From NCBI RefSeq assembly GCF_013122565.1, contig NZ_CP053258.1: DNA of 64,000 bases. One strand, written 5' to 3'. Below the pieces are notes generated by a model. It saw only the letters and a list, made by a program, of their open reading frames with translations. It was not told the DNA's origin and made no database searches. This stretch comes from Escherichia coli. Its GTDB lineage: Bacteria > Pseudomonadota > Gammaproteobacteria > Enterobacterales > Enterobacteriaceae. Positions 1,747 to 50,463 of this stretch are shown here, in pieces (within the stretch, counting starts at the first letter, position 1; every line of letters starts with the position of its first letter). A program made the translations under genes and the position numbers.

Positions 1747-2082
1747 ATGTCATTACCACACTGCCCAAAATGCAACTCCGAATACACCTACGAAGATAAC
1801 GGCATGTACATCTGCCCGGAATGTGCCTACGAATGGAACGACGCAGAACCTGCACAGGAAAGCGACAAGCTGATCGTTAAAGATGCTAACGGCAATCTGC
1901 TGGCTGACGGCGACAGCGTTACCATCATTAAAGATCTGAAGGTGAAGGGTAGCTCTTCGATGCTGAAAATTGGCACCAAAGTGAAAAACATCCGCCTGGT
2001 TGAAGGCGACCATAACATCGATTGCAAAATCGACGGTTTTGGTCCGATGAAACTAAAATCTGAGTTTGTGAAAAAGAACTGA
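1747..2082 (+). CDS. phnA: PhnA, zinc-ribbon protein (111 aa)
   Basis: [30 protein letters not shown] zinc-ribbon N-terminus; ATG checked at 1747. The track ORF 1600-2082 is an upstream extension. Confidence 0.85.
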
Positions 2083-2094
2083 TTGTATTGTGAT

Positions 2095-2285
<191 letters not shown>

Positions 2286-2347
2286 AATCTCAACTGTTCA
2301 AATTTCGAACTACACTTAACTGGCTTCTCTTAACTGAGGTCATCATC

Positions 2348-2782
2348 ATGCCGTTAAGTCCCTACCTCTCTTTTGCCGGTAACTGTTCCGACGCGATTGC
2401 CTATTATCAACGTACGTTGGGCGCGGAACTGCTCTATAAAATCAGCTTCGGCGAAATGCCAAAATCAGCGCAGGACAGCGCCGAGAACTGCCCTTCCGGA
2501 ATGCAATTTCCCGATACCGCCATCGCTCATGCCAACGTGCGCATTGCCGGAAGCGACATCATGATGAGCGATGCTATACCGTCAGGAAAAGCTAGCTACT
2601 CCGGCTTTACGCTGGTGCTCGATTCGCAACAGGTCGAAGAAGGAAAACGCTGGTTTGATAACCTTGCCGCTAACGGAAAAATCGAAATGGCCTGGCAGGA
2701 AACTTTCTGGGCGCATGGCTTCGGCAAAGTCACCGATAAATTTGGCGTACCGTGGATGATTAATGTCGTTAAACAACAATAA
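2348..2782 (+). CDS. phnB: PhnB, glyoxalase/VOC-fold protein
   Basis: 144 aa from ATG at 2348 (MPLSPYLSFAGNCSDAIAYYQ...); the track ORF is an upstream extension. Confidence 0.8.
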   Translation: MPLSPYLSFAGNCSDAIAYYQRTLGAELLYKISFGEMPKSAQDSAENCPSGMQFPDTAIAHANVRIAGSDIMMSDAIPSGKASYSGFTLVLDSQQVEEGKRWFDNLAANGKIEMAWQETFWAHGFGKVTDKFGVPWMINVVKQQ

Positions 2783-2832
2783 TAGCTACCTGCTGCGCCC
2801 ACTGGCGTTAATTCCCAAAAAGGAGAAATACC

Positions 2833-3267
2833 ATGCCTGCTTGTGAGCTTCGACCGGCCACGCAGTACGACACCGACGCGGTTTACGCACTGATTTGTGA
2901 GCTAAAACAGGCGGAGTTTGACCACCACGCGTTTCGCGTGGGCTTTAACGCCAACCTGCGCGACCCAAACATGCGCTACCATCTGGCGCTGCTGGATGGC
3001 GAAGTTGTCGGCATGATCGGCCTGCATTTGCAGTTTCATCTGCATCATGTCAACTGGATCGGCGAAATTCAGGAACTGGTGGTGATGCCGCAGGCACGCG
3101 GTTTGAACGTTGGTAGCAAGTTGCTGGCGTGGGCGGAAGAGGAAGCCCGTCAGGCCGGGGCCGAAATGACCGAGCTTTCTACCAACGTGAAGCGCCACGA
3201 CGCGCACCGTTTTTATCTGCGCGAAGGCTATGAGCAGAGCCATTTCCGTTTCACTAAGGCGCTGTAA
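2833..3267 (+). CDS. phnO: GNAT-family N-acetyltransferase, PhnO-like (144 aa)
   Basis: 144 aa with a GNAT acetyl-CoA binding motif ([19 protein letters not shown]); sequence recalled as PhnO-like. Strong RBS AAAGGAGAA upstream. Confidence 0.55.
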
Positions 3268-3279
3268 GATGAGCCTACC

Positions 3280-3609
3280 TCATCGCCCATACTCATCTTC
3301 CATTCTCCGCTCTTCATCTTCTAGCTGCCGACGCTCCTGATCAAGCTGGCGCTGGCGATCGTCCAGTTGCCTGCGGCGATCTTCAAACTGGCGGCGGCGA
3401 TCGTCATATTGTCTGCGACGATCGTCGCTCACTTCACGCTGCCAGCTGTCGTCGCGCGAATCTTCATAGTCTCGCCCACGGTCAGGGTTATAAGCGTCGT
3501 TAATCGCCTGCTGAATATTGCCAATGGTGTCGTCGATAATATCGGCCTGGGCCGGAACGGTGGACAGCGTGAGCAGGGTGAAAAGAAAGAGCGTGGAGTG
3601 GTGTTTCAT
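3280..3609 (-). CDS. yjdP: Secreted low-complexity protein YjdP-like (109 aa)
   Basis: Signal peptide MKHHSTLFLFTLLTLSTVPAQA followed by charged DDRRRQ/EDRRRQ repeats. Confidence 0.7.
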   Translation of the reverse strand: MKHHSTLFLFTLLTLSTVPAQADIIDDTIGNIQQAINDAYNPDRGRDYEDSRDDSWQREVSDDRRRQYDDRRRQFEDRRRQLDDRQRQLDQERRQLEDEERRMEDEYGR

Positions 3610-3677
3610 AAACTCAGCCTCGCAACAAAGTTAATACAAGGTAGGCAAAGGTACCTGTCGCGAGTAGCGGAGGATTC

Positions 3678-5939
3678 TCAATTCTCTTGCCCCAGAACCT
3701 GCGCCAGCTGCGCGCGGGTAAAAGGTTTGCGCAACAGCGCTACGTCTGGCAGCGCGGGGTTATGGCTGGGGCGTAAATCCTGGCCGCTGATGAGTAGCAG
3801 CGTCAGATGCGGGTAAAGTTCGCGGGCCGCATTGACCACTTCTGCGCCGCTCATGCCGCCTGGGAGCATTAAATCGCTGATAAAAATATCGATTTCCGCT
3901 GATGCCGCCAGCAGGTCCAGCGCCTGTTCGCCGCTGCTCGCTTCCAGCGTCAAATAGCCCAGCAGGTGTAACTGCTCGCAGATGGTCTGGCGCACCGCGG
4001 CTTCATCTTCCAGCACGAGCACCAGTTTATCGCCGCTGACGGCTGTCTGTTCTACCGCCGCTGGCGATAGGTTTTTCGCCGCCGTCAGCGCGCGGGGAAG
4101 CTGTAATCTGACCGTTGTCCCCTGCCCCGGCGCGCTTTCAATTTCTACACGCCCACCGGACTGGCGCACAAAACCATAGACCATCGACAAGCCCAGCCCG
4201 CTGCCACTCCCCGTCTGTTTGGTGGTAAAGAACGGCTCAAAGACCTGGCTTTTCACCGCCTGCGACATACCGCTGCCATGATCGATGACCTCCAGCGCCA
4301 CCATGTCCTGACGCTGCCCACTGCTGCGGGTAACGCGCTGATTCCAGGTACGAATTTTGATAATTCCCGTCAGCCCTTCCATCGCATCGCGGGCGTTCAT
4401 CACCAGATTGATGATGGCATTTTCCAGCTGGCTGACATCAATCCACGCGGGCCATGCCGGAGACTGCGCTTCAATCTCAATCGTCAGCGTCGCCGGTAAG
4501 GAGTGGCGCATTAATTCGCTTAACTCTTCCAGCAGTGTTTTTAGCTCAACGGCTTGCGGATGTAAGGACTGCTTGCGGGAAAACGCCAGTAGTCGCTGGG
4601 TCAGTAGCGCGCCACGTTCGGCAGCTTGCTGCGCCCGCTGTATTCGCGGCGCGTCGGGTGAGTCCGTGTTCACCAGTTCCAGGCTGCCAATAATTACCGC
4701 CAACAGATTATTAAAATCATGGGCCAGCCCACCCGTCAATTGCCCAACCGCTTTCAGTTTCTGGCTGTGTAATAGCGCCTCTTCCAGCCCCTGCCTCTCG
4801 GTTTGGGCAATCTCCATCTGCGTGGTTTTCTCTTTCAACAGCCTTGACGTTCGTTCGAGTGACGCGGTATTGCGGGCAAAAACGTTAAAGGCGCGCGCCA
4901 GTTCACCCAACTCATCGCGCCGCTGTAACGCCGGAAAAGTGACGTCCGCTTCGCCGTGCGCCAGGCGGCTCATAGCGCGGGAAATCGCCGTCAGGTTAGA
5001 GCCGAGATTGCGATAGATATACCAACCTGCAAATGCGGTGATCACCACCGCTAACAGAGCGAAAATCATGATCACCCTCTCGCCGGAGCGCAAATCCTGG
5101 TAACTTTGCGCCACCCGCTGACCGGAGAGCATCGCCACCTGTTCGGCGTAACGGTTGATGTCGCCATTAAGGATCGCCACCAGCGCTTTGATGTGAAACA
5201 TATACCAGCTGATTGCCAGATCGCTTTGCTCCAGAGCGGCAGAAAGCGGCGCGAGTTTACGCAGTTCATCATTGAAATCATTGAGTAGCGTATTAACCAA
5301 TGGCGTATCGCTGTGGGTCGGCAACGCAGACATTACCCCGACCAGTTGATGAATAATCGCCTGCGGCGCGGGGGTGGCAATAGCGGCAACAATCAGTCGG
5401 TTCATCTCGTTAAGCAAAATATCATCTTGCGCATTAGTGACTTTTTGCAGATGCCGCAGATAACTTAAGTTTTGATACAGCGAACTTAACAGCGCGTTGC
5501 GCTCCAGATGTCGCCTTTGCCCGCGCTCCAACATTCCGCCGACGCTGGTTTGCAGTTCGTTGCTACGCGTGATGATGCGCGCCACCAGCCCGGCCTCCTG
5601 CTGCGCTAACGGCGCGTTCGCCAGTTGTGCAAGCGAGCTTTTTAATGCCCGCTGTGTCTCCTGCAATCGCTCGGCTTCGCCTTTATATTCCAGCGCTCCC
5701 ACCACTTGTGACAATCGCACCGCCGCCGTCGCCACATTTGCCGTGTCGCGCGCCAGATTCAGGCTGCCGGTCATATCATCCACCGTTTGCTGCTGTACCA
5801 GCTCCTGCATCTGGCTGGCATGACGAAAGCCCATTACCGCCACGCCGCTGACCATCAGCGTCACCGCTACCACCAGCAAATTCAAAAGCAGCAATCGCCC
5901 GCGCGCGCTGGCAAAAAAGTGACGTCCGGGGTGCGCCAT
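3678..5939 (-). CDS. Hybrid sensor histidine kinase (periplasmic sensor domain, HisKA, HATPase, C-terminal receiver; no Hpt)
   Basis: ATG at 5937-5939 (MAHPGRHFF...); two TM segments flank a roughly 290 aa periplasmic domain; H-box GGLAHDFNNLLAVIIGSLEL; G-boxes; C-terminal REC (LVLVLEDEAAVR...DLMLPGG). Confidence 0.8.
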   Translation of the reverse strand: MAHPGRHFFASARGRLLLLNLLVVAVTLMVSGVAVMGFRHASQMQELVQQQTVDDMTGSLNLARDTANVATAAVRLSQVVGALEYKGEAERLQETQRALKSSLAQLANAPLAQQEAGLVARIITRSNELQTSVGGMLERGQRRHLERNALLSSLYQNLSYLRHLQKVTNAQDDILLNEMNRLIVAAIATPAPQAIIHQLVGVMSALPTHSDTPLVNTLLNDFNDELRKLAPLSAALEQSDLAISWYMFHIKALVAILNGDINRYAEQVAMLSGQRVAQSYQDLRSGERVIMIFALLAVVITAFAGWYIYRNLGSNLTAISRAMSRLAHGEADVTFPALQRRDELGELARAFNVFARNTASLERTSRLLKEKTTQMEIAQTERQGLEEALLHSQKLKAVGQLTGGLAHDFNNLLAVIIGSLELVNTDSPDAPRIQRAQQAAERGALLTQRLLAFSRKQSLHPQAVELKTLLEELSELMRHSLPATLTIEIEAQSPAWPAWIDVSQLENAIINLVMNARDAMEGLTGIIKIRTWNQRVTRSSGQRQDMVALEVIDHGSGMSQAVKSQVFEPFFTTKQTGSGSGLGLSMVYGFVRQSGGRVEIESAPGQGTTVRLQLPRALTAAKNLSPAAVEQTAVSGDKLVLVLEDEAAVRQTICEQLHLLGYLTLEASSGEQALDLLAASAEIDIFISDLMLPGGMSGAEVVNAARELYPHLTLLLISGQDLRPSHNPALPDVALLRKPFTRAQLAQVLGQEN

Positions 5940-6052
5940 ATCACGCTCCGTGAAGAAAAATCGCAATATGACAAATATGAACGGCTTCTGACATTTTGCA
6001 TTTACTTTCCTGTGATGGAGTGCTGATATCGACAACCTCGCAGGAGTCCACC

Positions 6053-7573
6053 ATGAACAGCACGCCGGTTCTGGAGATGCGCAATATTGCCAAAGCTTTT
6101 GGCAAATTTTATGCGCTCAAAGGGGTGGATTTGACGGTCTACCCAGGAGAGATCCACGCCCTGATGGGGGAAAACGGCGCCGGAAAAAGCACGCTGATGA
6201 AGGTGCTGGCGGGGGCGTATACCGCCACCAGCGGCGAGATCCTGATAGACGGCAAGCCCTTTCACATTCGCACGCCGAAAGATGCCTTAAGCGCCGGTAT
6301 TACCCTGATTTATCAGGAGATGCAGCTGGCACCCAATTTGACGGTGGCAGAAAATATTTTTCTCGGCAGCGAGCTTTCCCACGGCGGGCTGGTGCAGCGT
6401 AAAGAGATGCTGGTGCAGGCGCAAAAAGTGATCGACCGCCTCGGCGCGCAGTTTAACGCCAGCGATAAGGTCATGACGCTGACCATTGCCGAGCAACAAC
6501 AGGTCGAAATCGCCCGGGCGCTGCATCGCAACAGCCGCATTCTGGTGATGGACGAACCCACCGCAGCCCTCTCCTCGCGTGAAACTCACCGCCTGTTTGA
6601 ATTAATCATGCGGCTGCGCGATGAAGGGATGGCGATTATCTACATTAGCCACCGCATGGCGGAAGTGTATGAGCTTTCCGATCGCGTCAGCGTGCTGCGC
6701 GACGGGCAATACGTTGGCAGCCTGACCCGCGACAACCTCAACGCCGGGGAGCTGGTGCGGATGATGGTCGGCAGGCCACTGAGCGATCTGTTCAATAAAG
6801 AGCGCGATATCCCGCTCGGTAAAGCCCGCCTGAACGTTCACCACCTGACCGACGGCGGCAAAGTCCAGCCGAGTAGCCTGCTGGTGCGTTCCGGCGAAAT
6901 TGTTGGCCTCGCCGGACTGGTGGGTGCCGGACGTTCCGAACTGGCGCAGTTGATCTTCGGCGTGCGCAAAGCGACAGGCGGAATGATTGAAGTCGATGGC
7001 GAACCGGTGGTGATCCACTCCCCGCGCGAAGCCATCGATCTTGGCATTGGCTTTCTCACCGAAAACCGCAAAGAACAAGGCTTATTCCTTGAAATGGCGG
7101 CAGCCGAAAACATCACCATGGCAACCCTGGAGCGCGACGCCCGCTGGGGAATGCTCAATCGCAAAAAAGCGCAAACCATTTCCGATGACGCCATTAAGTT
7201 GCTCAACATTCGCGTGCCTCATGCCCAGGTGCGCGCGGGCGGGCTTTCCGGCGGCAATCAGCAAAAACTGTTGATCTCCCGCTGGGTGGCGATTGGCCCG
7301 CGCATTTTACTGCTCGATGAACCCACCCGCGGCGTGGACGTTGGCGCAAAAAGCGAGATCTACCGGATCATGAACGAGATGGCACGCAAGGGCGTGGCGA
7401 TCCTGATGATCTCCAGCGAACTGCCGGAGATAGTGGGAATGAGCGATCGCGTCTATGTGATGCGTGAAGGCAGCATTGCCGGTGAGTTAAACGGCAAAAA
7501 CATCACCCAGGAAAACATTATGACCTTAGCGACCGGAGTTAACGACGCCCATTCCCAGGCGGTGACCTCATGA
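6053..7573 (+). CDS. Sugar ABC transporter ATP-binding protein (two fused ABC domains, RbsA/AlsA-like)
   Basis: Walker [10 protein letters not shown], signature LSGGNQQK, second ABC domain; ATG at 6053 with RBS CAGGAG. Confidence 0.85.
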
Positions 7574-8544
7574 CGACCTCTGCAAAAACCTCTGCCAAAA
7601 AAATGCTGATGAGCGATCTGATGCAAACGGTCGGCATCTTGCCCATTTTGATTCTGATCGTGGCGGTATTTGGCTTTATCGCGCCAAACTTTTTTAACGA
7701 AAGCAACCTGCTAAATATTACCCGCCAGGCGTCGATCAACATTGTGCTGGCGGCGGGAATGACCTTCATCATTTTGACTGGCGGGATCGATCTTTCTGTA
7801 GGTTCAATTCTCGGCACCACGGCGGTGGCGGCGATGGTCGTCTCCCTTAGCCCTGAGTTCGCCATGCTGTCGATCCCGGCGGCGCTGATGCTCGGTCTGC
7901 TGCTGGGGCTGTTCAACGGCGCGCTGGTGGCCTTTGCCGGATTGCCGCCGTTTATCGTCACGCTTGGCACCTATACGGCGCTGCGCGGGGCGGCGTATCT
8001 GCTGGCGGACGGCACCACGGTTATCAACTCCAACATTAATTTCGAGTGGATAGGCAATAACTATCTCGGGCCGGTCCCGTGGCTGGTGGTGATTGCGCTG
8101 GCGGTGATCGTGGTGTGCTGGTTTATTCTGCGCCGCACCACGCTTGGTGTTCATATCTACGCCGTCGGCGGCAATATGCAGGCGGCGCGTCTTACCGGCA
8201 TTAAGGTCTGGCTGGTGCTGCTGTTTGTTTATGGCATGAGCGGCCTGCTTTCAGGGCTTGGCGGGATTATGAGCGCCTCGCGGCTGTACAGCGCCAACGG
8301 CAACTTAGGCATGGGTTACGAACTGGACGCCATTGCGGCGGTGATCCTCGGCGGCACCAGTTTTGTCGGCGGCATCGGCACCATCACCGGCACGCTGGTC
8401 GGGGCGCTAATTATCGCCACGCTCAACAATGGCATGACCTTAATGGGCGTCTCTTACTTCTGGCAACTGGTGATCAAAGGGGCGGTGATCATCATTGCGG
8501 TGCTGATCGACAAATACCGTACCCGACACCATCAAAGTGCATAA
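7570..8544 (+). CDS. Sugar ABC transporter permease (RbsC-like)
   Basis: Polytopic membrane protein; ATGA start overlap with the upstream ATPase gene. Confidence 0.8.
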
Positions 8545-13109: not shown

Positions 13110-15095
13110 ATGAATAACTCTCGGTTATTCCGTTTGAGCAGAATTGTTATTGCGTTAACTGCCGCCAGCGGCATGATGGTAAATACCGCTTACGCGAAAG
13201 AGGAAGCGAAAGCCGCCACTCAATATACCCAACAGGTTAACCAGAATTACGCCAAATCATTACCGTTTAGCGATCGTCAGGATTTTGACGATGCCCAGCG
13301 TGGATTTATCGCCCCGCTGCTGGATGAAGGTATTCTGCGTGATGCGAACGGTAAAGTTTACTACCGCGCGGACGATTACAAATTTGATATTAATGCCGCA
13401 GCGCCGGAAACCGTAAACCCCAGCCTGTGGCGTCAGTCGCAGATCAACGGCATTTCTGGCCTGTTCAAAGTCACCGATAAAATGTATCAGGTGCGCGGCC
13501 AGGATATCTCTAACATTACGTTCATTGAGGGCGAGAAAGGCATTATTGTTATTGACCCGCTGGTGACGCCGCCTGCCGCAAAAGCCGCACTTGACCTTTA
13601 CTTCCAGCATCGTCCGCAAAAACCGATTGTTGCCGTTATCTACACTCACAGCCACACCGACCACTATGGTGGCGTGAAAGGCATTATCTCTGAAGCCGAT
13701 GTTAAATCCGGCAAAGTTCAGGTGATTGCCCCTGCTGGCTTTATGGACGAAGCCATCAGCGAAAACGTGCTGGCGGGTAACATCATGAGCCGCCGTGCGC
13801 TCTACTCTTACGGTCTGTTACTGCCGCACAACGCACAAGGCAACGTGGGTAATGGTCTTGGCGTGACGCTGGCAACGGGTGACCCGAGCATTATTGCACC
13901 GACTAAAACTATCGTCAGAACTGGCGAGAAGATGATTATCGACGGCCTGGAGTTTGACTTCCTGATGACCCCAGGTAGCGAAGCGCCAGCCGAAATGCAC
14001 TTCTATATTCCGGCCCTGAAAGCCCTGTGTACCGCCGAGAACGCCACGCATACCCTGCACAACTTCTACACTCTGCGCGGCGCGAAAACCCGCGACACCA
14101 GCAAGTGGACCGAGTATCTGAACGAAACGCTGGATATGTGGGGTAACGACGCGGAAGTATTGTTTATGCCGCACACCTGGCCGGTCTGGGGCAATAAGCA
14201 TATCAATGATTATATTGGTAAATATCGCGATACTATCAAGTACATTCACGACCAGACCCTGCACCTGGCGAACCAGGGCTACACAATGAATGAAATCGGC
14301 GACATGATTAAGCTGCCGCCTGCGCTTGCCAATAACTGGGCCAGCCGCGGCTATTACGGCTCTGTCAGCCACAACGCCCGCGCGGTGTATAACTTCTATC
14401 TTGGCTATTACGACGGTAACCCGGCTAACCTGCATCCGTATGGTCAGGTGGAGATGGGTAAACGTTACGTGCAGGCGCTGGGCGGTTCTGCCCGCGTCAT
14501 CAACCTGGCGCAAGAAGCGAACAAGCAAGGTGATTACCGCTGGTCGGCAGAACTGCTGAAACAGGTGATTGCCGCCAACCCGGGTGACCAGGTCGCGAAG
14601 AATCTGCAAGCGAATAACTTTGAACAGCTGGGCTATCAGGCCGAGTCCGCCACCTGGCGCGGTTTCTACCTGACCGGCGCGAAAGAGCTGCGCGAAGGGG
14701 TGCATAAGTTCAGCCACGGCACCACCGGTTCCCCGGACACCATTCGCGGAATGTCGGTCGAAATGCTGTTCGACTTTATGTCCGTTCGCCTCGATAGCGC
14801 GAAAGCCGCGGGTAAAAATATCAGCCTGAACTTCAATATGAGCAACGGCGATAACCTCAACCTGACGCTGAACGATAGCGTGCTTAACTACCGTAAAACG
14901 CTGCAATCCCAAGCTGACGCCTCTTTCTACATCAGCCGTGAAGATCTGCACGCCGTGCTGACCGGACAAGCCAAAATGGCGGATCTGGTAAAAGCGAAGA
15001 AAGCCAAAATTATTGGCAATGGCGCGAAACTGGAAGAAATTATTGCTTGTCTGGATAATTTCGATTTGTGGGTGAATATCGTAACCCCAAATTAA
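13110..15095 (+). CDS. yjcS: Alkyl/aryl sulfatase with metallo-beta-lactamase domain (YjcS-like)
   Basis: Signal peptide; [13 protein letters not shown] motif; about 661 aa. Confidence 0.8.
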
Positions 15096-39018: not shown

Positions 39019-40668
39019 TTACTGATTTTCCTCAATCAACAACGCTTCAAGCAAATCGAGATCGTGCAGTAATTTTTGCAGCGTTTCGTTGCTGATCTCC
39101 CGCGTGGCGCGCAGGTGGTACAGTTCAGCACGTTCAGAACGCAATGCCGTCAGACGGAAGCGACGCTCAAGGTTCTCTTCCTGCACGGAACTTTCAACGT
39201 CGTTACGTCCATCGGCGCGACGACGCAGGTTACCAATGACGCGAGAACTGACCTCCGTAAGCAGCTGGTTATCGATATTCTCTTCGGTATCCGCCGCCAG
39301 ACGCTCCTCCATTTTCTGGATCGCCACAATCGCCACTTCTGCCGTTGCCGCTCGCGCAATACGTTCCTCTTTCAATTGTTGCGAATGGTCCGCGACTTCA
39401 ATGTGTTGTAGCAGAATAGGCAACATCACCACGCCGACAAACAGCGAGAAGAGAATGACGCCAGCCGCCAGGAACACCAGCTCATAGCGCGCCGGGAAGA
39501 CGTTACCATCCGGCAAGAGCAGCGGGATTGAGAGCACACCGGCCAGAGTGATCGCCCCACGCACCCCGGCGAAAGACGCGATCAGGATTTCTCGTGTGGT
39601 CCACGAACCAAACTCCATCGGCTTCTTCTTCAGGAAGCGGTTGCTGAACTTTTTCATCGTCCACAGCCAGCCGAAACGGACCAGCATCAGCGCCGCATAT
39701 ATCAGAATAATATCGGTAAACAGCATCCAGATTTCGACGTTAGGGTCGATTTCTGCCGCCATCAGCGACGTCTCCAGAATACCCGGTAACTGCAGACCTA
39801 ACAGCAGGAACACCATGCCGTTAAAGACAAATTCCAGCATCGCCCAGGTGCTGTTTGCACGCAGGCGCATTGCCAGCGGCGCACGGCGCATAACACCGGA
39901 GCGGGTGATGGTCATCCCGGCGGCAACCGCAGCGAGGATGCCGGAAACGCCAATATGTTCCGCAATCAGATAAGAAGCGAATGGCAGCAGGAACAGCAGG
40001 ACGATCTGCGTCGCGGGTTCATCACCGCCCCAGCGGCTGAGGAATCGCAGCGAGCGACCGTACAGCCAGCTCACCACAAAACCGGCGAGAATACCGCCAA
40101 TGGCTACTTTCATAAATTCGACCGTCGCACCGCCAACGGTGAAGATCATCGTCCCCATCGCCACTGCTACGGCAAACTTCAACGACACCAGGCCGGAGGC
40201 GTCATTCATCAACGCTTCGCCCTGCAAAATGCCCATGATTTTTTTCGGGATGCGCCCTTCGCCAACAATCCCGGAGAGCGCCACAGCATCGGTCGGAGAA
40301 AGCACCGCCGCCAGCGCAAAGGCGGGGATCAGCGGAATGCCCGGCACCACCCAGTAAATAAGGAAGCCAATACCGACCACGGTGACCACCACCAGCGCCA
40401 GCGCGAGGCCGAAAATCTCTCGACCATGTTCGAGAAATTCACGGGTCGGCGTTTTCCAGCCATCAGCGAACAGCAACGGCGGGATAAACAAGACTAAAAA
40501 GAGTTCAGGATCAAACTCCACATGCAAACCAAACGTCGGCCACGCCAGTAGCGCACCGATGGCGATTTGCATAAGCGGAAGCGGGATCTGAAAGGGCATG
40601 ACACGAGTGACCACCCCGGACAGCGAGACCACGAGGGTCATTATCAGTATGGTGAAGAAGATTTCCAT
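39019..40668 (-). CDS. yjcE: Na+/H+ exchanger family protein YjcE (CPA1)
   Basis: 549 aa; polytopic N-terminus plus charged cytoplasmic tail. Confidence 0.85.
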   Translation of the reverse strand: MEIFFTILIMTLVVSLSGVVTRVMPFQIPLPLMQIAIGALLAWPTFGLHVEFDPELFLVLFIPPLLFADGWKTPTREFLEHGREIFGLALALVVVTVVGIGFLIYWVVPGIPLIPAFALAAVLSPTDAVALSGIVGEGRIPKKIMGILQGEALMNDASGLVSLKFAVAVAMGTMIFTVGGATVEFMKVAIGGILAGFVVSWLYGRSLRFLSRWGGDEPATQIVLLFLLPFASYLIAEHIGVSGILAAVAAGMTITRSGVMRRAPLAMRLRANSTWAMLEFVFNGMVFLLLGLQLPGILETSLMAAEIDPNVEIWMLFTDIILIYAALMLVRFGWLWTMKKFSNRFLKKKPMEFGSWTTREILIASFAGVRGAITLAGVLSIPLLLPDGNVFPARYELVFLAAGVILFSLFVGVVMLPILLQHIEVADHSQQLKEERIARAATAEVAIVAIQKMEERLAADTEENIDNQLLTEVSSRVIGNLRRRADGRNDVESSVQEENLERRFRLTALRSERAELYHLRATREISNETLQKLLHDLDLLEALLIEENQ

Positions 40669-40819
40669 GCGTTCCCTGTTTGCGATGTTTTTTTATGACC
40701 TGAGAAAGGCGTTATGCCTGAATCCTCATTTTTTCAGAATATCGCAAAAGCTCACACAATGTGCGGAGAAAATAAAAACGGGCAGCCATTGCCACCCGTT
40801 TTCAGAATCATATGAAAGA

Positions 40820-42169
40820 TTAGATAGCCCAGCCACCCGCATAGAAGGTCACCAGCGCCACGGCGATAACGACCGTACCGATGTTCAACTTGCGCCATTC
40901 GCCGGAAACCAGACGACCAATCACCAGAGTCGCGAAGCCGATCATAATGCCTGTTACGATGTTACAGGTCAGCACGATGAATACCGCCGTAACCAGCCCC
41001 GCCATCGCATCAACAAAATCAGCAAAGTCGATTTTCGCCACGTTACTCAGCATTAGCAGGCCAACGTACATCAGCGCCGGAGCCGTTGCGTACCCCGGAA
41101 CGAGGTAAGAGAGCGGAGAGAGGAACAGAATCAGCAGGAACAGCACGCCAACGGTGATAGCCGTCAAACCGGTTTTACCGCCCGCCGCCGTACCCGCCGC
41201 AGACTCGATGTATACCGCTGCCGGAGCTGCACCCACCAGGCCAGAGAAAACGCTGCTCATGGAGTCAGTGGTCAGGGCTTTCCCGCCGTCGATGATCTGC
41301 CCATCTTTATCCAGCAGGTTCGCCTGGCCGGCGACGGCGCGGATAGTTCCGGTGGCATCAAATACTGCCGTCATCACCAGCGCCAGAACGCTTGGCAGGA
41401 CTACAGGATTCAGCGCGCCCATAATGTCCAGGCTGCCAATCAGTGAATTGCCGTTTTCATCGCTCAATGAAGGCATGGCGAAAACGCCGGAGAAATGGAC
41501 GTTAGGATCGAAGATCAAACCGACAATTGAGATACCGATAATGGTCAGCAGAATGCCACCAGGGACTTTCAGTTTTTCCAGGCCGATGATCACCGCCAGA
41601 CCTACCAGTGACATAATCACCGGGAAGGTCGCGAAATCACCCAGCGCAACGGGCAGACCATCAAGCGGGTTTTTAATCACCAGACCGACACCATTAGCAG
41701 CAATGAGCAGCAGGAACAGACCGATACCGATCCCCGTGCCGTGCGCCACACCGTGCGGCAAGTTGCGCAAAATCCAGCTACGGATACCCGTGGCAGAAAT
41801 GACCGTAAATAGCACACCCATCAGGAACACGGCACCCAGTGCGACAGGTACGCTAATATGTTGCCCCAGCACCAGGCTGAATGCGGTAAACGCCGTCAGG
41901 GAGATGGCGCAACCAATCGCCAACGGCAGATTAGCCCACAGACCCATCACGATAGAACCGAGTCCGGCAACCAGACAGGTCGCAACGAAAACTGCCGCAG
42001 GCGGGAAGCCCGCTTTACCCAACATGCCTGGAACGACGATAACCGAGTAGACCATCGCCAGAAACGTTGTTAACCCGGCAACCACTTCCTGACGGACAGT
42101 GCTTCCACGTTGTGAAATTTTAAACCAGGCGTCGAGTGAACCGCCGGTACGCGCTGATGGCGTAGACAT
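40820..42169 (-). CDS. ghxP: Guanine/hypoxanthine permease GhxP (NCS2/AzgA family)
   Basis: 449 aa polytopic transporter. Confidence 0.85.
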
Positions 42170-42589
42170 AAGAGAACATCCCCTGAGAGTTTAATTTGCG
42201 TCAAGATGCGTGGCGGACAATCCCCTGCCAGCGAAACGTTATCTTCCTGCTCCAGGTTTGCGACAATTTGCTGCGTCGCAAAAAAGCAAACGTTTAGCTC
42301 CGCGCATACAAAACGGGTGGTAAAAAAAAGCAAACGATTATCCGGCGATCATAGCGGCTTTTTCAACCGAAGTTTGCTGCTTTTTTCTCTTTTATTGTCT
42401 TGACGATGAAAAACCAGGCAATTGATGCGCAAACGTTATCGTCGATGCGCAAGATTGCAGCGTTATCGAGCCATATACCGTTCAGGATTGCGATAAAAAA
42501 TCGTCTGAGATGACAAAAATATTGCGGCTAAAAAGTATACTTTTACACTGGCGAAGAAACGCCGGTGACATACAATTAAAGCATCAACA

Positions 42590-42727
42590 CCAACCGGAAC
42601 CTCCACCACGTGCTCGAATGAGGTGTGTTGACGTCGGGGGAAACCCTCCTGTGTACCAGCGGGATAGAGAGAAAGACAAAGACCGGAAAACAAACTAAAG
42701 CGCCCTTGTGGCGCTTTAGTTTTGTTC
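42590..42727 (+). ncRNA. ryjA: Candidate small RNA (RyjA-like) ending at a bidirectional terminator; 5' end approximate
   Basis: Plus-strand intrinsic terminator (CTAAAGCGCCC-TTGTG-GGCGCTTTAG then TTTTGTT) at 42695-42727 with no plus-strand CDS upstream; K-12 has ryjA between ghxP and soxR. Confidence 0.3.
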
Positions 42728-43180
42728 ATCTTCCAGTAAGCGTGCGCCGGTACCTTCTTCTCCTAAGCGGTCGCCCGGGTTACGCAACGGGCAATCACTG
42801 CGCGAAAGGCAGCCACAACCAATACATCCGTCCAGTTCGTCACGCAGCGCCACTAAGGTATGAATGCGCCGATCCAACTCTTCTCGCCATTGGGACGAAA
42901 GCTGTTTCCACTCTTTCGCACTTAACGTATGCCCTTCGGGCAACACGCCAAACGCTTCACCAATGGTCGCCAGTGGAATGCCAATACGCTGAGCAATTTT
43001 GATAATTGCGACATATCGCAACACATCACGTTTATATCGTCGCTGATTGCCGCTATTACGGATACTGGTAATCAACCCTTTGCTTTCATAGAAATGCAGC
43101 GCCGATACCGCCACACCGCTGCGTTTCGCCACTTCGCCGGGGGTTAGCAGCGCTTTAATGCGGGGTAATTTCTTTTCCAT
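42716..43180 (-). CDS. soxR: Redox-sensing MerR-family activator SoxR
   Basis: MerR HTH; C-terminal [12 protein letters not shown] [2Fe-2S] motif; 154 aa. Confidence 0.95.
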
Positions 43181-43191
43181 AAATCGCTTTA

Positions 43192-43209
43192 CCTCAAGTT
43201 AACTTGAGG
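43192..43209. promoter_or_regulatory. SoxR operator (perfect 18-bp palindrome) within the soxS promoter
   Basis: CCTCAAGTTAACTTGAGG in the soxR-soxS divergent intergenic region. Confidence 0.85.
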
Positions 43210-43265
43210 AATTATACTCCCCAACAGATGAATTAACGAACTGAACACTGAAAAGAGGCAGATTT

Positions 43266-43589
43266 ATGTCCCATCAGAAAATTATTCAGGATCTTATCGC
43301 ATGGATTGACGAGCATATTGACCAGCCGCTTAACATTGATGTAGTCGCAAAAAAATCAGGCTATTCAAAGTGGTACTTACAGCGGATGTTCCGCACGGTG
43401 ACGCATCAGACGCTTGGCGATTACATTCGTCAACGCCGCCTGTTACTGGCCGCCGTTGAGTTGCGCACCACCGAGCGTCCGATTTTTGATATCGCAATGG
43501 ACCTGGGTTATGTCTCGCAGCAGACCTTCTCCCGCGTTTTCCGTCGGCAGTTTGATCGCACTCCCAGCGATTATCGCCACCGCCTGTAG
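43266..43589 (+). CDS. soxS: AraC-family superoxide-response activator SoxS
   Basis: 107 aa, two HTH motifs. Confidence 0.95.
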   Translation: MSHQKIIQDLIAWIDEHIDQPLNIDVVAKKSGYSKWYLQRMFRTVTHQTLGDYIRQRRLLLAAVELRTTERPIFDIAMDLGYVSQQTFSRVFRRQFDRTPSDYRHRL

Positions 43590-43591
43590 TT

Positions 43592-45178
43592 TTATTGCCC
43601 GCGCGTTAACTCCCGCGCGGGTAATTGCTCCATCCATTGCATAAACACCTGCGGCGGCATCGCCTTCGCAAAGAACCATCCCTGGCAATAGCGCACGCCG
43701 CGTTTGCGCAGCCAGTCAACCTGCTCCTCAGTTTCGACGCCTTCAGCGATCGTTTTTAACCCCAGGCTGTGCGCCAGCTCGATGATATGTTCCGCAATCA
43801 AATGACTGGTTTTATGGGTGGTCAGCGTCTCAACAAACGATTTATCGATTTTCAAAATATCGACATTCAATGATTTAAGGTTATGCAAGTTAGAGTAGCC
43901 AATACCAAAATCATCAATTGCCACTTCGTAACCGGCCTGGCGGAAAGCCAGAATAATCGGCGTCATTTTGTCAACATCAAGAAATGCATGTTCAGTCACT
44001 TCAAATTTAATTTGCTGCGGGCGCACCGCGTATTGCTCTGTTTTCTGATTAGTTCGCGCTATCAACCGTGACGTATGAAAATCGGAGGCCGACAGGTTAA
44101 TAGAAACATAGCGATCGGCATGTGTTGCCAGGTACGCGCCCAGATCGCGGAAGACATTATCAATAACATAATCAGTTACCTGTTCTATCATCCCCTCCTT
44201 TTCTGCCAGCGGAATAAACTCTGCCGGATTCATAACTTGCTCCTGCTCACCAGGCCAACGTAATAACGCTTCAGCACCGATACATTTTTCTGTTTTGATA
44301 TCGATTATTGGCTGGTAATAAAGACAAAGTTGATGTTTTTCGAGGGCGCGTTGCAATTTGCGTTTGGGAGACAAATAGTTTTGTCGAATACGTAGCCAGA
44401 GTAATAGCAGAACAAGACTCCCCAAAATACCGGCGGGTAACGCAAAAATAAGATGATTATAAAAATGGGTTATAAGACGTTGATATGAAGTCGCAACAAT
44501 GGCCGCAATTGGGCGTTTTGTCGAATAAACTGTCGCATATAAATAGCCATTTCGTTGTACGGTTAAATCCTTCAAATGAATCAGCGGAGAAAACGTTGCT
44601 GCCGAGGCCTCGTTGCTTAACGAGAAAAAGGTTTTCGTCACCGTATCATACACACCCCATTGCAATGTCGGGTCATCAGACATCACTTCACTCCAGAAGA
44701 GAGGGTTGATAACCGCCACATAATTTCCCCGCTGCATATAGGTCATTTTATAGCCAGAGAAAAAAGGCGTATCGCGGTAATAATAGATAGAAACGTTAGG
44801 TTCACGCTTATAATCGGCCGGTGCAATCGTATAGCCGTTTACAGGCGCTATCAGCGATGAGCATAAAAAATGGTTATCACGGGCATAGATCAATTCATTA
44901 ATATAAAGATAGCCACGAATAATATTTAACATTCGCTTTTGATGGGCTGGAGAGCAAACTTGCCCCTGATAGCGTTCTGCTGCATCGCTCACTAAATCTG
45001 CCTGGCGAATGACCAGCTCGGATTTATCCAGTGCCAGTTGAGCAAAGGTTCGGAGCTGATTATTCACTTCTGATTTTGCCCAAAGGAAGGCAATCCATAG
45101 CGAAAGAATGATGGGAAAGAGAACTAAAAAGATAATGCCCGGCAACGCCAGTAATTGGTGTCGTGCACGATGACTCAT
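43592..45178 (-). CDS. pdeC: CSS-motif membrane c-di-GMP phosphodiesterase (EAL) PdeC/YjcC
   Basis: N-terminal TM and periplasmic domain; C-terminal EAL domain (EALLRWP); ATG at 45178. Confidence 0.85.
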
Positions 45179-45604
45179 TGCTATCAATTTCCTGCCTGTT
45201 TATACCCGGCCATTGCAAGGTGAAAACCCTGGGCACCGACGTCTTTAGATAAATCTTACGGTATAAATAGCACTTTTTCCTGATTTGAAATTGATACCTT
45301 TTTAATCGTCATCTGGATAAAAATAATTCATTGATATTCAAATTAATTTTCTTCAGGAATGCAGGGCGGCGGGAAGATATGCCCTTAATGCCACAGAAAA
45401 ACCACATAATCTGTACAGCAATAAAAGTCACGACCTAATCTGGCTAACAAACAATCAATTGTGATATAGTTCACAAATTAATGAAACAAACAGAGTGTTT
45501 CATTTTTGTGTTCTGCAAGCCCCGCGATAGCCAGAGTGTACCACGCCTCCCGTGAACAACGCCGCGCTGTCCAGGGCATCGGCTCTTTTCAGAGGAATTG
45601 TTTG

Positions 45605-45886
45605 ATGGCTACCCTCACCACTGGCGTGGTTCTTCTTCGCTGGCAACTTCTTAGTGCCGTAATGATGTTTCTGGCCAGCACACTCAACATCCGTTTTCGT
45701 CGGTCTGATTATGTCGGGCTTGCAGTGATCAGCAGCGGTCTGGGCGTGGTTTCCGCCTGCTGGTTCGCAATGGGGTTGCTTGGCATCACAATGGCGGACA
45801 TCACCGCCATCTGGCACAACATCGAGTCGGTGATGATAGAAGAGATGAATCAGACACCGCCACAGTGGCCAATGATTTTGACCTGA
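45605..45886 (+). CDS. yjcB: Small membrane protein YjcB (93 aa)
   Basis: MATLTTGVVLLRWQLL...; two TM helices. Confidence 0.6.
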   Translation: MATLTTGVVLLRWQLLSAVMMFLASTLNIRFRRSDYVGLAVISSGLGVVSACWFAMGLLGITMADITAIWHNIESVMIEEMNQTPPQWPMILT

Positions 45887-46157
45887 TTTCACTTTCTTGA
45901 CTTTTATCCCTTCACAAGCGGTCGATAAATAGCTTCCTCGGCCGCCCTATCATCACATATCGCATTTTCTTTTAATCAACGCTTGAAGGTGTTGTACGCT
46001 TAGCATCTTCACTATCTTCGCCACCTCCTTGCTGAATTTTATACAAATGAGCAATTTTTGATAGTTCAAAATTTGATTAAGGCTAGGATGAAAACAAATA
46101 AACTGCACTACCTAACGTCCAACGTAATGTTCTCAATAAATTATAAAGGAGAAGATC

Positions 46158-46739
46158 ATGACGATATATAATAATAATATAGGAACTCAAAATACAAAAA
46201 CACTGGAGCAATTTCAGAATGACCTGGTTAAAGCAGATAAAAAATTTGCAAATTCATCAAAATTAAACGCAGTTATTTATAAAAAGATTGATGGCTTTAC
46301 AAATCTTTTGAAAGATCTTATTCATTTCATCACGCATGGGAAAGTCGAGTTTAATTCGCAGCGAGTATCTAAACTCATGGCAGAAGTAACCTCTTTCGAG
46401 TCCAATATTGATGGAACCCCCAAAGATATAAATTTTATTTCTCAAAATGATTATTTACGCCAAACTGTATCCATCAGACAAGATGGGCTAGGCACAAAAA
46501 TAATATTCAGTGTAGAGGAAACCCATTTTAATATAGACCATGGCGTTTTTTTACACGGAAAAAAATGGAGTGAAACAAGATCGCTTCCTGAAGAATTAAA
46601 TATGGCTATTGTTGTTGAAAACCTTAGAAAATTGACCACACAGTTAAACAAAGCCGAGCGACACGAAGTAGAAAGAGAGTATAAAGAATATAAACTGGTA
46701 CAAAGTGCAAAACTGAATATTTTGTATAACCCGGAATAA
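46158..46739 (+). CDS. Hypothetical protein (193 aa), AT-rich orphan
   Basis: Clean ORF with RBS AAAGGAGAAG about 6 bp upstream of the ATG; no recognisable motif; AT-rich by eye. Confidence 0.5.
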   Translation: MTIYNNNIGTQNTKTLEQFQNDLVKADKKFANSSKLNAVIYKKIDGFTNLLKDLIHFITHGKVEFNSQRVSKLMAEVTSFESNIDGTPKDINFISQNDYLRQTVSIRQDGLGTKIIFSVEETHFNIDHGVFLHGKKWSETRSLPEELNMAIVVENLRKLTTQLNKAERHEVEREYKEYKLVQSAKLNILYNPE

Positions 46740-46850
46740 TAAAATAATGAGAGGAACAATCCTTGACTATTTCAGGAGCCGAAATTCATTTTCGACTCCT
46801 GTACGCATATGTTTCGCGTTAAAAGATCTCAATACAAAAGATGCATATCC

Positions 46851-47387
46851 TTAGAACGGAATGTCGTCATCAAAGTCCATCGGCGGCTCGTTAGACGGCG
46901 CTGCCGGAGCGGACTGCTGCGGGCGAGACTGCGCGCCGCCGCTGAACTGATTGCCACCCTGCGGCTGCTGAGGCTGACCCCAACCGCCCTGCGGCTGACC
47001 ACCACCGATATTGCCACCTGCCGGAGCGCCACCACCCTGACGACCACCCAGCATCTGCATGGTGCCGCCAACGTTCACCACGACTTCTGTGGTGTAGCGA
47101 TCCTGACCGGATTGATCGGTCCATTTACGGGTACGCAGCTGACCTTCGATATACACCTGAGAACCTTTACGCAGATATTCGCTGGCTACTTCTGCCAGTT
47201 TGCCGAACAGCACAACGCGGTGCCATTCAGTCTGCTCTTTCATCTCGCCGGTCGCTTTATCACGCCAGGATTCGGAAGTAGCCAGCGTAATGTTGGCAAC
47301 AGCGCCACCATTTGGCATGTAGCGTACTTCCGGGTCCTGACCCAGATTACCAACGAGAATAACCTTGTTTACGCCTCTGCTGGCCAT
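46851..47387 (-). CDS. ssb: Single-stranded DNA-binding protein
   Basis: [28 protein letters not shown]...; Gly/Gln-rich tail ending DFDDDIPF; 178 aa. Confidence 0.95.
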
Positions 47388-47537
47388 GTTCGTGTCTCCT
47401 GAAAAAAATCGTTCTGAATAAGTGTAAACGCGCGATTGTACCATTACCAATAGCGCTTTTACTATGTTGTGACCTCGGTTCCGGGAAACAAACCTGGCCA
47501 GACATTGTTACACAACACTCCGGGTAATGCATTCCAA

Positions 47538-47557
47538 TACTGTATATTCATTCAGGT
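47538..47557. promoter_or_regulatory. LexA (SOS) box in the ssb-uvrA divergent region
   Basis: TACTGTATATTCATTCAGGT, CTG-N10-CAG. Confidence 0.8.
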
Positions 47558-47640
47558 CAATTTGTGTCATAATTAACCGTTTGTGATCGCCGGTAGCACC
47601 ATGCCACCGGGCAAAAAAGCGTTTAATCCGGGAAAGGTGA

Positions 47641-50463
47641 ATGGATAAGATCGAAGTTCGGGGCGCCCGCACCCATAATCTCAAAAACATCAACCTCGTT
47701 ATCCCCCGCGACAAGCTCATTGTCGTGACCGGGCTTTCGGGTTCTGGCAAATCCTCGCTCGCTTTCGACACCTTATATGCCGAAGGGCAGCGCCGTTACG
47801 TTGAATCCCTTTCCGCCTACGCGCGGCAGTTTCTGTCACTGATGGAAAAGCCGGACGTCGATCATATTGAGGGGCTTTCTCCTGCCATCTCAATTGAGCA
47901 GAAATCGACGTCTCATAACCCGCGTTCTACGGTGGGGACAATCACCGAAATCCACGACTATTTGCGTTTGTTGTTCGCCCGCGTTGGCGAGCCGCGCTGT
48001 CCGGACCACGACGTCCCGCTGGCGGCGCAAACCGTCAGCCAGATGGTGGATAACGTGCTGTCGCAGCCGGAAGGCAAGCGTCTGATGCTACTCGCGCCAA
48101 TCATTAAAGAGCGCAAAGGCGAACACACCAAAACGCTGGAGAACCTGGCAAGCCAGGGCTACATCCGTGCTCGTATTGATGGCGAAGTCTGCGATCTTTC
48201 CGATCCGCCAAAACTGGAACTGCAAAAGAAACATACCATTGAAGTGGTGGTTGATCGCTTCAAGGTGCGTGACGATCTTACCCAACGTCTTGCCGAGTCA
48301 TTTGAAACCGCGCTGGAGCTTTCCGGTGGTACCGCGGTAGTTGCGGATATGGACGACCCGAAAGCGGAAGAGCTGCTGTTCTCCGCCAACTTCGCCTGCC
48401 CAATTTGCGGCTACAGTATGCGTGAACTGGAGCCGCGACTGTTTTCATTTAACAACCCGGCAGGTGCCTGCCCGACCTGTGACGGCCTTGGCGTACAGCA
48501 ATATTTCGATCCTGACCGCGTGATCCAGAATCCGGAATTGTCGCTGGCAGGTGGTGCGATCCGTGGCTGGGATCGCCGCAACTTCTATTATTTCCAGATG
48601 CTGAAATCGCTGGCAGATCACTATAAGTTCGACGTCGAAGCGCCGTGGGGCAGCCTGAGCGCGAATGTGCATAAAGTGGTGTTGTACGGTTCTGGCAAAG
48701 AAAACATTGAATTCAAATACATGAACGATCGTGGCGATACCTCCATTCGTCGTCATCCGTTCGAAGGCGTGCTGCATAATATGGAGCGCCGCTATAAAGA
48801 GACGGAATCCAGCGCGGTACGCGAAGAATTAGCCAAGTTTATCAGTAATCGTCCGTGCACCAGCTGCGAAGGGACGCGTCTGCGTCGGGAAGCGCGCCAC
48901 GTGTATGTCGAGAATACGCCGCTGCCCGCTATCTCCGACATGAGCATTGGTCATGCGATGGAATTCTTCAACAATCTCAAACTCGCAGGTCAGCGGGCGA
49001 AGATTGCGGAAAAAATCCTTAAAGAGATCGGCGATCGTCTGAAATTCCTCGTTAACGTCGGCCTGAATTACCTGACACTTTCCCGCTCGGCAGAAACGCT
49101 TTCTGGCGGTGAAGCACAGCGTATCCGTCTGGCGAGCCAGATTGGTGCGGGCCTGGTTGGCGTTATGTATGTACTGGACGAGCCGTCTATCGGCCTGCAC
49201 CAGCGCGATAACGAGCGCCTGTTGGGTACGCTTATCCATCTGCGCGATCTCGGTAATACCGTGATTGTGGTGGAGCACGACGAAGACGCGATTCGCGCCG
49301 CTGACCATGTGATCGACATTGGCCCAGGCGCAGGTGTTCACGGCGGTGAAGTGGTCGCAGAAGGTCCGCTGGAAGCGATTATGGCGGTGCCGGAGTCGTT
49401 GACCGGACAGTACATGAGCGGTAAACGCAAGATTGAAGTACCGAAGAAACGCGTTCCGGCGAATCCGGAAAAAGTGCTGAAGCTGACAGGCGCACGCGGC
49501 AACAACCTGAAGGACGTGACGCTGACGCTGCCAGTCGGTCTGTTTACCTGCATCACCGGGGTTTCAGGTTCCGGTAAATCGACGCTGATTAACGACACGC
49601 TGTTCCCTATTGCCCAACGCCAGTTGAATGGTGCGACCATCGCCGAACCGGCACCGTATCGCGATATTCAGGGACTGGAGCATTTCGACAAAGTGATCGA
49701 TATCGACCAAAGCCCAATTGGTCGTACTCCGCGTTCTAACCCGGCGACCTATACCGGCGTGTTTACACCTGTGCGCGAACTGTTTGCGGGCGTACCGGAA
49801 TCCCGTGCGCGTGGTTATACGCCAGGACGTTTCAGCTTTAACGTCCGTGGCGGACGCTGCGAAGCCTGTCAGGGCGACGGTGTGATCAAAGTGGAGATGC
49901 ACTTCCTGCCGGACATTTACGTACCGTGCGACCAGTGTAAAGGTAAACGCTATAACCGTGAAACGCTGGAAATTAAGTACAAAGGCAAAACCATCCACGA
50001 AGTGCTGGATATGACCATCGAAGAGGCGCGTGAGTTCTTTGATGCCGTACCTGCACTGGCGCGTAAGCTGCAAACGTTGATGGACGTTGGCCTGACGTAC
50101 ATTCGCCTGGGGCAGTCCGCAACCACCCTTTCTGGTGGTGAAGCCCAGCGCGTGAAGCTGGCGCGTGAGCTGTCAAAACGCGGCACCGGGCAGACACTGT
50201 ATATTCTCGACGAGCCGACCACCGGTTTGCACTTCGCCGATATTCAGCAACTGCTCGACGTGCTGCATAAACTGCGCGATCAGGGCAATACCATTGTGGT
50301 AATTGAGCACAATCTCGACGTGATTAAAACCGCTGACTGGATTGTCGACCTGGGACCGGAAGGCGGCAGTGGCGGCGGCGAGATCCTCGTCTCCGGTACG
50401 CCAGAAACCGTCGCGGAGTGCGAAGCTTCGCATACGGCGCGCTTCCTCAAGCCGATGCTGTAA
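47641..50463 (+). CDS. uvrA: Excinuclease ABC subunit A
   Basis: 940 aa; two ABC ATPase modules; zinc-finger Cys motifs. Confidence 0.95.

Follow-up and report, generated by a model that had tools for sequence, protein, structure and literature searches.

A degenerate phn locus with an intact and probably still selected phnO in Escherichia

In a stretch of Escherichia coli DNA of 64 kb (contig NZ_CP053258.1; hereafter, the window), the phn locus consists of yjdM, yjdN, and phnO, flanked by scars of the genes that once surrounded phnO. Taken as a whole, the evidence makes it very probable that this degenerate locus arose by a deletion of ~9.7 kb between two CAACAA motifs and by erosion of phnP, and that it has kept an intact phnO, maintained by selection, that provides stand-alone aminoalkylphosphonate acetylation.

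Gene content of the reduced locus

The features found in and around the locus are listed below, with the profile or comparison that identified them.

1747..2082, plus strand: yjdM (historical name phnA), zinc-ribbon protein, 111 aa, intact (TIGR00686, 209.6 bits)
2100-2176 and 2200-2276, plus strand: two REP/BIME-type repeats, in tandem between yjdM and yjdN (Rfam naRNA4, RF02564)
2348..2782, plus strand: yjdN (historical name phnB), VOC-family metalloprotein, 144 aa (NF007537, 319.1 bits)
2774..2779, plus strand: CAACAA microhomology, left deletion junction, phnB codons 143-144 / phnN 3' end
2780..2832, plus strand: decayed phnN remnant (last ~70 bp of the gene), as read from an allelic series
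2833..3267, plus strand: phnO, aminoalkylphosphonate N-acetyltransferase, 144 aa, intact (NF007530, 314.7 bits)
3269..3276, plus strand: phnP start remnant ATGAGCCT, joined directly to the yjdP 3' end (alignments)
3280..3609, minus strand: yjdP, DDRRRQL-repeat protein, 109 aa, convergent with phnO (NF041443, 148.5 bits)
3681-5942, minus strand: hybrid histidine kinase

The ORF listing and direct reading gave exactly the layout described in the first-pass annotation, with yjdN ending at 2782, a 50-bp spacer, a ribosome-binding site proper to the acetyltransferase gene, and convergent stops at 3267 and 3280 that lie 12 bp apart. The yjdM product shares 99% amino acid identity with E. coli copies, and the two repeats score 88 and 102 bits, above the gathering score of 59.5. 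The yjdN gene runs from an ATG at 2348 to a TAA at 2780-2782, and its product matches positions 1-144 of the 147 in the NCBIfam profile NF007537. The spacer that follows carries AAGGAG at 2820-2825, 7 nt ahead of the phnO ATG at 2833, and phnO ends with a TAA at 3265-3267. The gap between the phnO and yjdP stop codons (3268-3279) reads GATGAGCCTACC, and yjdP, which lies directly after phnP in full-operon strains, marks the right-hand edge of the former operon. This gap is spanned by a perfect 6-bp inverted repeat made by the deletion, GATGAG-CCTAC-CTCATC at 3268-3284; since it is too weak and AT-rich to be called a terminator, the phnO and yjdP transcripts probably overlap. Beyond yjdP, the hybrid histidine kinase gene is followed by a sugar ABC transporter (3681-8544 and beyond), and comparison with annotated E. 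coli loci also placed D-lyxose/mannose isomerase, aldolase, and kinase genes there. This region is variable in E. coli, MS 16-3 and other strains carrying rpiB-alsR-alsB-alsA after yjdP instead.

The acetyltransferase, described at first pass as a GNAT protein resembling PhnO, proved to be a PhnO orthologue. It scored 314.7 bits with the PhnO equivalog profile NF007530, more than twice the cut-off of 142, with residues 1-144 covering profile positions 1-144 of 144, and the protein is identical (100% of amino acids; 96.3% of nucleotides at the gene level) to that encoded between phnN and phnP in the full-operon strain E. coli PS10-3. Remnants of these same two neighbors flank the gene in the window. 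The translation contains E78 and Y128 (...VNWIG-E78-IQE... and ...HRF-Y128-LRE...), both of which were needed for PhnO acetyltransferase activity in mutagenesis experiments (PMC6199490). Together with the NCBIfam matches of YjdM and YjdN, these data bear out the suggested reduction of the locus to phnA, phnB, and an acetyltransferase gene, phnO being both intact and constrained. When the 14 Phn proteins of a full-operon E. coli, PhnC to PhnP, were compared by tblastn with the whole 64-kb window, no homologue of phnC-N or phnP was detected, and this covers both the C-P lyase core phnG-phnM and the transporter genes phnCDE; the sole other matches were generic ABC-ATPase similarities of 22-33% identity. 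The C-P lyase core and phnP are thus missing at the locus, as had been claimed. Since yjdM/phnA and yjdN/phnB were reportedly found dispensable for phosphonate use by Metcalf and Wanner in 1993, in practice phnO alone survives.

Deletion scars on both sides of phnO

The locus was aligned with that of PS10-3, in which phnCDEFGHIJKLMNOP lies between the same flanks as in the window, i.e., crfC, yjdM, and yjdN on one side, and yjdP, the hybrid histidine kinase, and the sugar ABC transporter on the other. Relative to this strain, the window lacks ~9.7 kb and ~0.84 kb, and its yjdN is three codons shorter. In the full operon, phnB ends with ...AAACAACAACCAACGCAATAA, and this is followed by a GC-rich hairpin, a 132-bp intergenic region, and phnC. 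In the window, phnB ends with ...AAACAACAA, immediately followed at the junction by TAA, so that the final three codons of the normal 147-aa protein are replaced and codon 144 is fused at CAACAA to the decayed 3' end of phnN. The CAACAA motif is found in the PS10-3 locus at 4245-4250, within phnB, and at 13943-13948, within phnN, which corresponds to a deletion of 9,698 bp that covers the phnB hairpin, the whole 132-bp phnB-phnC intergenic region, and the sequence from phnC to most of phnN. The motif CTGTTAGTCAC...AAATCGTCAC, which lies upstream of phnC in PS10-3 and which we take to be the pho box of the Pho-regulated promoter, was absent from the window when up to 3 mismatches were allowed.

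The 53 bp after the phnB junction correspond to the final ~70 bp of phnN, which became clear only via intermediate alleles. When the spacer of the window was aligned with the phnN 3' end alone, the result was marginal, 2 of 2,000 shuffles reaching the same score, and the alignment failed when the last 13 nt were left out; the claim of phnN homology therefore stands on the multi-allele series and not on the window alone. This series runs from the full operon through MS16-3 and R32_14_1F, then E1V33, then C9, to the window. Strains MS 16-3 and R32_14_1F keep the whole phnN remnant, labeled by the NCBI pipeline as a truncated ribose 1,5-bisphosphokinase pseudogene; E1V33 retains CAACAATGACAGCAGCCTGCGC, with 21 of 22 bases identical to phnN, and has lost 15 bp; and C9 and the window have this 15-bp loss in common with E1V33, plus more substitutions. 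In the window, the remnant at 2780-2832 has lost 15 bp, gained 3 bp, and accumulated several substitutions, and the yjdN stop codon (2780-2782) now lies in it, as does the native Shine-Dalgarno sequence of phnO (2820-2825), the native translation start region of phnO having been preserved through the left deletion. The CAACAA junction is common to the window, C9, E1V33, MS16-3, R32_14_1F, and MOD1-EC7003.

On the right-hand side, the window reads GATGAGCCT joined to ACCTCATCG after the phnO stop codon. Here, ATGAGCCT represents the first 8 bases of phnP, which are all that remains of this gene, and the rest is the yjdP 3' end, so that ~843 bp (phnP plus spacer) are missing with respect to PS10-3. 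Other alleles are less eroded and keep 52 to ~640 extra bp: R32_14_1F has phnP bases 1-64 and 331-499, MS 16-3 has bases 1-64, and E1V33 and C9 have the phnP start CCGGCGGCGCAC plus phnP 3'-end sequence and the spacer beyond. In R32_14_1F and MS16-3, both phnN and phnP are called pseudogenes by the NCBI annotation pipeline. These two strains also carry, in place of phnP, a gene for a 112-aa product that the annotation assigns to the 'low molecular weight protein tyrosine phosphatase family' (4069-4407 of the MS 16-3 locus, L069, and 4282-4620 of the R32_14_1F locus, L068); the MS 16-3 copy had no NCBIfam match at E <= 1e-10.

Alignment with the full operon thus located the deletion end points on both sides of phnO as phnN and phnP scars. 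Because phnO sits between remnants of the phnN 3' end and of the phnP start, phnC-phnN and phnP were deleted rather than never present, in agreement with the deletion posited in the first-pass annotation. One deletion of ~9.7 kb between the two CAACAA motifs removed the genes for transport, regulation, and the C-P lyase core, together with most of phnN, and phnP was then worn down by further deletions to its first 8 bases. The possibility of an assembly artefact was rejected, as the junction recurs in 11 complete E. coli chromosomes and in two other Escherichia assemblies.

Distribution in Escherichia and parallels in other genera

A contiguous phnB-phnO-yjdP arrangement was found in 11 of 5,426 complete E. 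coli genomes. Strains C9, PT62, LP5-1, ET201, MB53, VE-T9, XJ5.2, LHM10-1, and CP52E carry the orphan-phnO haplotype, MS 16-3 and R32_14_1F carry variants of it, and RefSeq annotates the orphan gene as phnO in the E. coli genomes with the haplotype. The left junction was also present in two unclassified Escherichia, E1V33, which has the phnB-phnO-yjdP arrangement too, and MOD1-EC7003, in which most of phnO and ~9.6 kb downstream have been lost. In the latter (locus L064, ~5950-6135), a further deletion took phnO codons 1-13, and another extends from about codon 59 of phnO to the equivalent of ~12866 in the window, with yjdP, the histidine kinase, and the sugar ABC cluster gone. The orphan-phnO haplotypes of these E. 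coli strains and of E1V33 have a left junction identical to that of the window, and their nucleotide identity to it is just ~96%. The loss is an old and shared haplotype and not a recent event in this strain. No paper on the Escherichia orphan-phnO haplotype was found in the literature searched, where absence is not proof.

The phnIJ genes were detected in 5,395 of the 5,426 E. coli genomes, with a median of one copy. A composite query made of the junction plus phnJ matched one place on each orphan-haplotype chromosome versus three in full-operon genomes, and with it no phnJ was found elsewhere on the 11 orphan-haplotype chromosomes, which serve as a proxy for the genome of this strain beyond the 64-kb window. 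The 20-kb core stretch at 30000-50000 (uvrA, acs, actP, yjcE, and pdeC) showed at most 97.8% identity to any of the 5,426 complete E. coli genomes; given this value over core genes, the window comes from a lineage at or just outside the E. coli edge that is unrepresented among complete E. coli assemblies, possibly a cryptic clade. Synonymous divergence from three E. coli alleles (loci L001, L002, and L006) increased along the locus, with values of 0.03-0.06 for phnA, 0.07-0.11 for phnB, 0.18-0.33 for phnO, and 0.14-0.17 for the histidine kinase gene, and phnIJ is just ~94-96% identical among E. coli strains. This pattern across 1747-5942, along with the phnIJ variation, suggests old, mosaic haplotypes in the region.

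Other genera were surveyed among GTDB representative genomes by exact-peptide seeding with PhnO, a procedure whose seeding limit left out E. coli, E. fergusonii, E. albertii, and S. enterica subsp. enterica; Salmonella was reached by a second protein search and contig look-up. The usual enterobacterial order among the representatives was phnG...N-phnO-phnP, frequently with yjdP and the same kinase behind it. Reduced loci were also observed: two Siccibacter loci have only phnO, which lies between gltP and the gene for a PAS-domain chemoreceptor, and two Franconibacter loci have phnF-phnH-phnO-phnP without phnI-N. Complete operons with proteins 93-100% identical to those of E. coli, and PhnO up to 100% identical, were detected in three Pseudocitrobacter loci (L003-L005) and in a metagenome-assembled 'Citrobacter sp.' genome. 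In the Pseudocitrobacter loci, phnO is ~94% identical to the window at the DNA level, and other matched regions are 76-80% identical; from these comparisons, it looks as if the whole C-P lyase operon was recently transferred between Escherichia and Pseudocitrobacter.

The closest parallel is S. enterica subsp. enterica, which, like the window, has lost the C-P lyase genes and carries phnA-phnB-phnO at the same chromosomal position, by proP, yjdM, and yjdN. Its PhnO is ~77% identical to that of Escherichia and falls in a protein cluster, built at 90% identity, with 1,020 members. The Salmonella protein is also said to have been studied as an aminoalkylphosphonate N-acetyltransferase by Errey and Blanchard in 2006. 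A 'phnOAB' pattern has been described for S. bongori and S. enterica, in which only phnA, phnB, and phnO are kept along with phnN remnants and, in S. bongori, phnP remnants too; in Salmonella subsp. enterica, the phosphonatase pathway is present instead (Fookes et al. 2011, PMC3158058). The window shows the same pattern, with only phnA, phnB, and phnO kept and remnants of both phnN and phnP. The details differ, however: S. enterica has a complete phnB (147 aa), keeps the hairpin, and retains ~100 bp of phnN, whereas the junction of the window lies inside phnB, and the genes downstream of phnO are not the same. Because the junctions differ and full operons persist in S. arizonae, S. diarizonae, S. 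salamae, and most E. coli, the Salmonella and Escherichia losses are independent deletion events.

The recurrence of the three-gene arrangement in Salmonella, Escherichia, and, in part, Siccibacter might also be read as ancestry, with phnA-phnB-phnO as the original state and with the C-P lyase genes arriving later, on either side of phnO, in other strains. We regard this as extremely improbable: it needs two precise insertions, one on each side of phnO, and is contradicted by the phnN 3'-end and the phnP 5'- and 3'-end pseudogene remnants that flank the orphan gene. Moreover, many enterobacterial genera normally carry the full operon followed by yjdP and the same histidine kinase, and within Salmonella itself the subspecies salamae, arizonae, and diarizonae carry the full operon, at a locus where the Salmonella and Escherichia junctions are not alike.

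Constraint on the orphan phnO and its proposed role

Five orphan phnO alleles from Escherichia were compared, and all of them are intact. Pairs of copies showed 19-32 synonymous versus 2-8 nonsynonymous differences, with dS of 0.22-0.43 and dN/dS of 0.025-0.07, and over the same alleles the non-coding phnN and phnP remnants beside the gene gathered indels and substitutions. Such low dN/dS values at this degree of synonymous divergence indicate that the orphan phnO has probably remained under strong purifying selection. The copies do not group according to haplotype: the window phnO has a dS of 0.18 to the full-operon PS10-3 copy versus 0.22-0.33 to the other orphan copies, and that of C9 is nearest to a full-operon Pseudocitrobacter copy. 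Recombination with operon-bearing alleles is therefore likely; it may have refreshed the orphan gene, and some of the constraint may date from times when the gene sat beside a complete operon. Retention of phnO is not obligatory, because in MOD1-EC7003 this gene was destroyed too.

These last observations, along with the rarity of the haplotype (11 of 5,426 genomes), could be accommodated by a neutral loss, in which phnO has not yet decayed because it is small, has been re-imported intact by recombination, and is functionless in this background. This reading is unlikely. The five alleles stayed intact while the adjacent phnN and phnP remnants decayed repeatedly, and the independent orphan copies of S. 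enterica, with the 1,020 sequences of its cluster, and of Siccibacter are also intact. In addition, the Salmonella orphan gene gave no sign of relaxed constraint, its dN/dS to the full-operon S. salamae copy being 0.10 versus 0.14 for full-operon copies among themselves. We therefore favor the retention of phnO by selection.

Concerning expression, a consensus scan of 2464-2926 found no terminator-like site between yjdN and phnO, and a similar scan gave a promoter-like site, with 9 of 12 positions matched, at 2655-2682, inside yjdN. From these scans, phnO transcripts would probably arise by read-through of yjdN or yjdM, or at the weak promoter-like site in yjdN, and the gene would have escaped control by the phosphate-starvation promoter that precedes phnC. 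C-P bonds would not be cleaved by this route, and PhnO would still be made.

The E. coli enzyme acetylates aminomethylphosphonate and 1-aminoethylphosphonate (Hove-Jensen et al. 2012, PMC3463581), and detoxification of the D-alanine analogue (S)-1-aminoethylphosphonate depends on it even with phosphate available; this compound can enter as the dipeptide alaphosphin via peptide transport, which offers a rationale for a PhnO that needs neither PhnCDE nor C-P lyase (PMC3463581). The physiological function of the Salmonella enzyme was noted as unknown in the same work. On this basis, PhnO alone is predicted to acetylate 1-aminoalkylphosphonates with acetyl-CoA and would neutralize toxic D-alanine analogues such as (S)-1-aminoethylphosphonate, entering as phosphonopeptides via peptide permeases; a minor acetyltransferase activity on protein lysines is also possible. 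The retained gene is thus likely to serve, on its own, in acetylating and detoxifying 1-aminoalkylphosphonates. With PhnCDE gone, free aminoalkylphosphonates may hardly enter the cell, and this weakens the detoxification rationale save for peptide-borne forms.

The absence of the phosphonate transporter from the 64-kb window would also suit a PhnO kept mainly for protein lysine acetylation, or for some other small amine unrelated to phosphonates, and ~10 proteins were acetylated by overexpressed PhnO in a strain without known acetylation routes, through an activity that depends on E78 and Y128 (PMC6199490). We consider this very unlikely as the main reason for retention, given that the same study reported few substrates and no phenotype, and that the measured activity and phenotype of PhnO concern aminoalkylphosphonates (PMC3463581).

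A broader extension of the favored role is that the haplotype is an old polymorphism across E. coli proper, the divergent lineage of the window, E1V33, and MOD1-EC7003, which has persisted beside the full operon because yjdN-phnO, freed from the phosphate-starvation promoter, constitutes a phosphate-independent resistance unit against natural phosphonopeptide antibiotics; the Salmonella and Siccibacter reductions would then reflect selection for this unit and not mere decay. As a whole, this proposal is speculative and rather unlikely.

The finding is otherwise a routine gene loss, in which phnO was already correctly annotated in RefSeq genomes and the state was already known in Salmonella; what it offers, to a modest degree, is a case of independent, convergent phnO retention and a clear series of decay intermediates. 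The lineage is predicted to be unable to grow on methylphosphonate, aminomethylphosphonate, and glyphosate-type compounds via C-P lyase. Collectively, the persistence of phnO after loss of the other operon genes, already published for Salmonella, is joined here by an independent case in Escherichia, which strengthens the view that PhnO has a role independent of C-P lyase, most plausibly the detoxification of 1-aminoalkylphosphonates.
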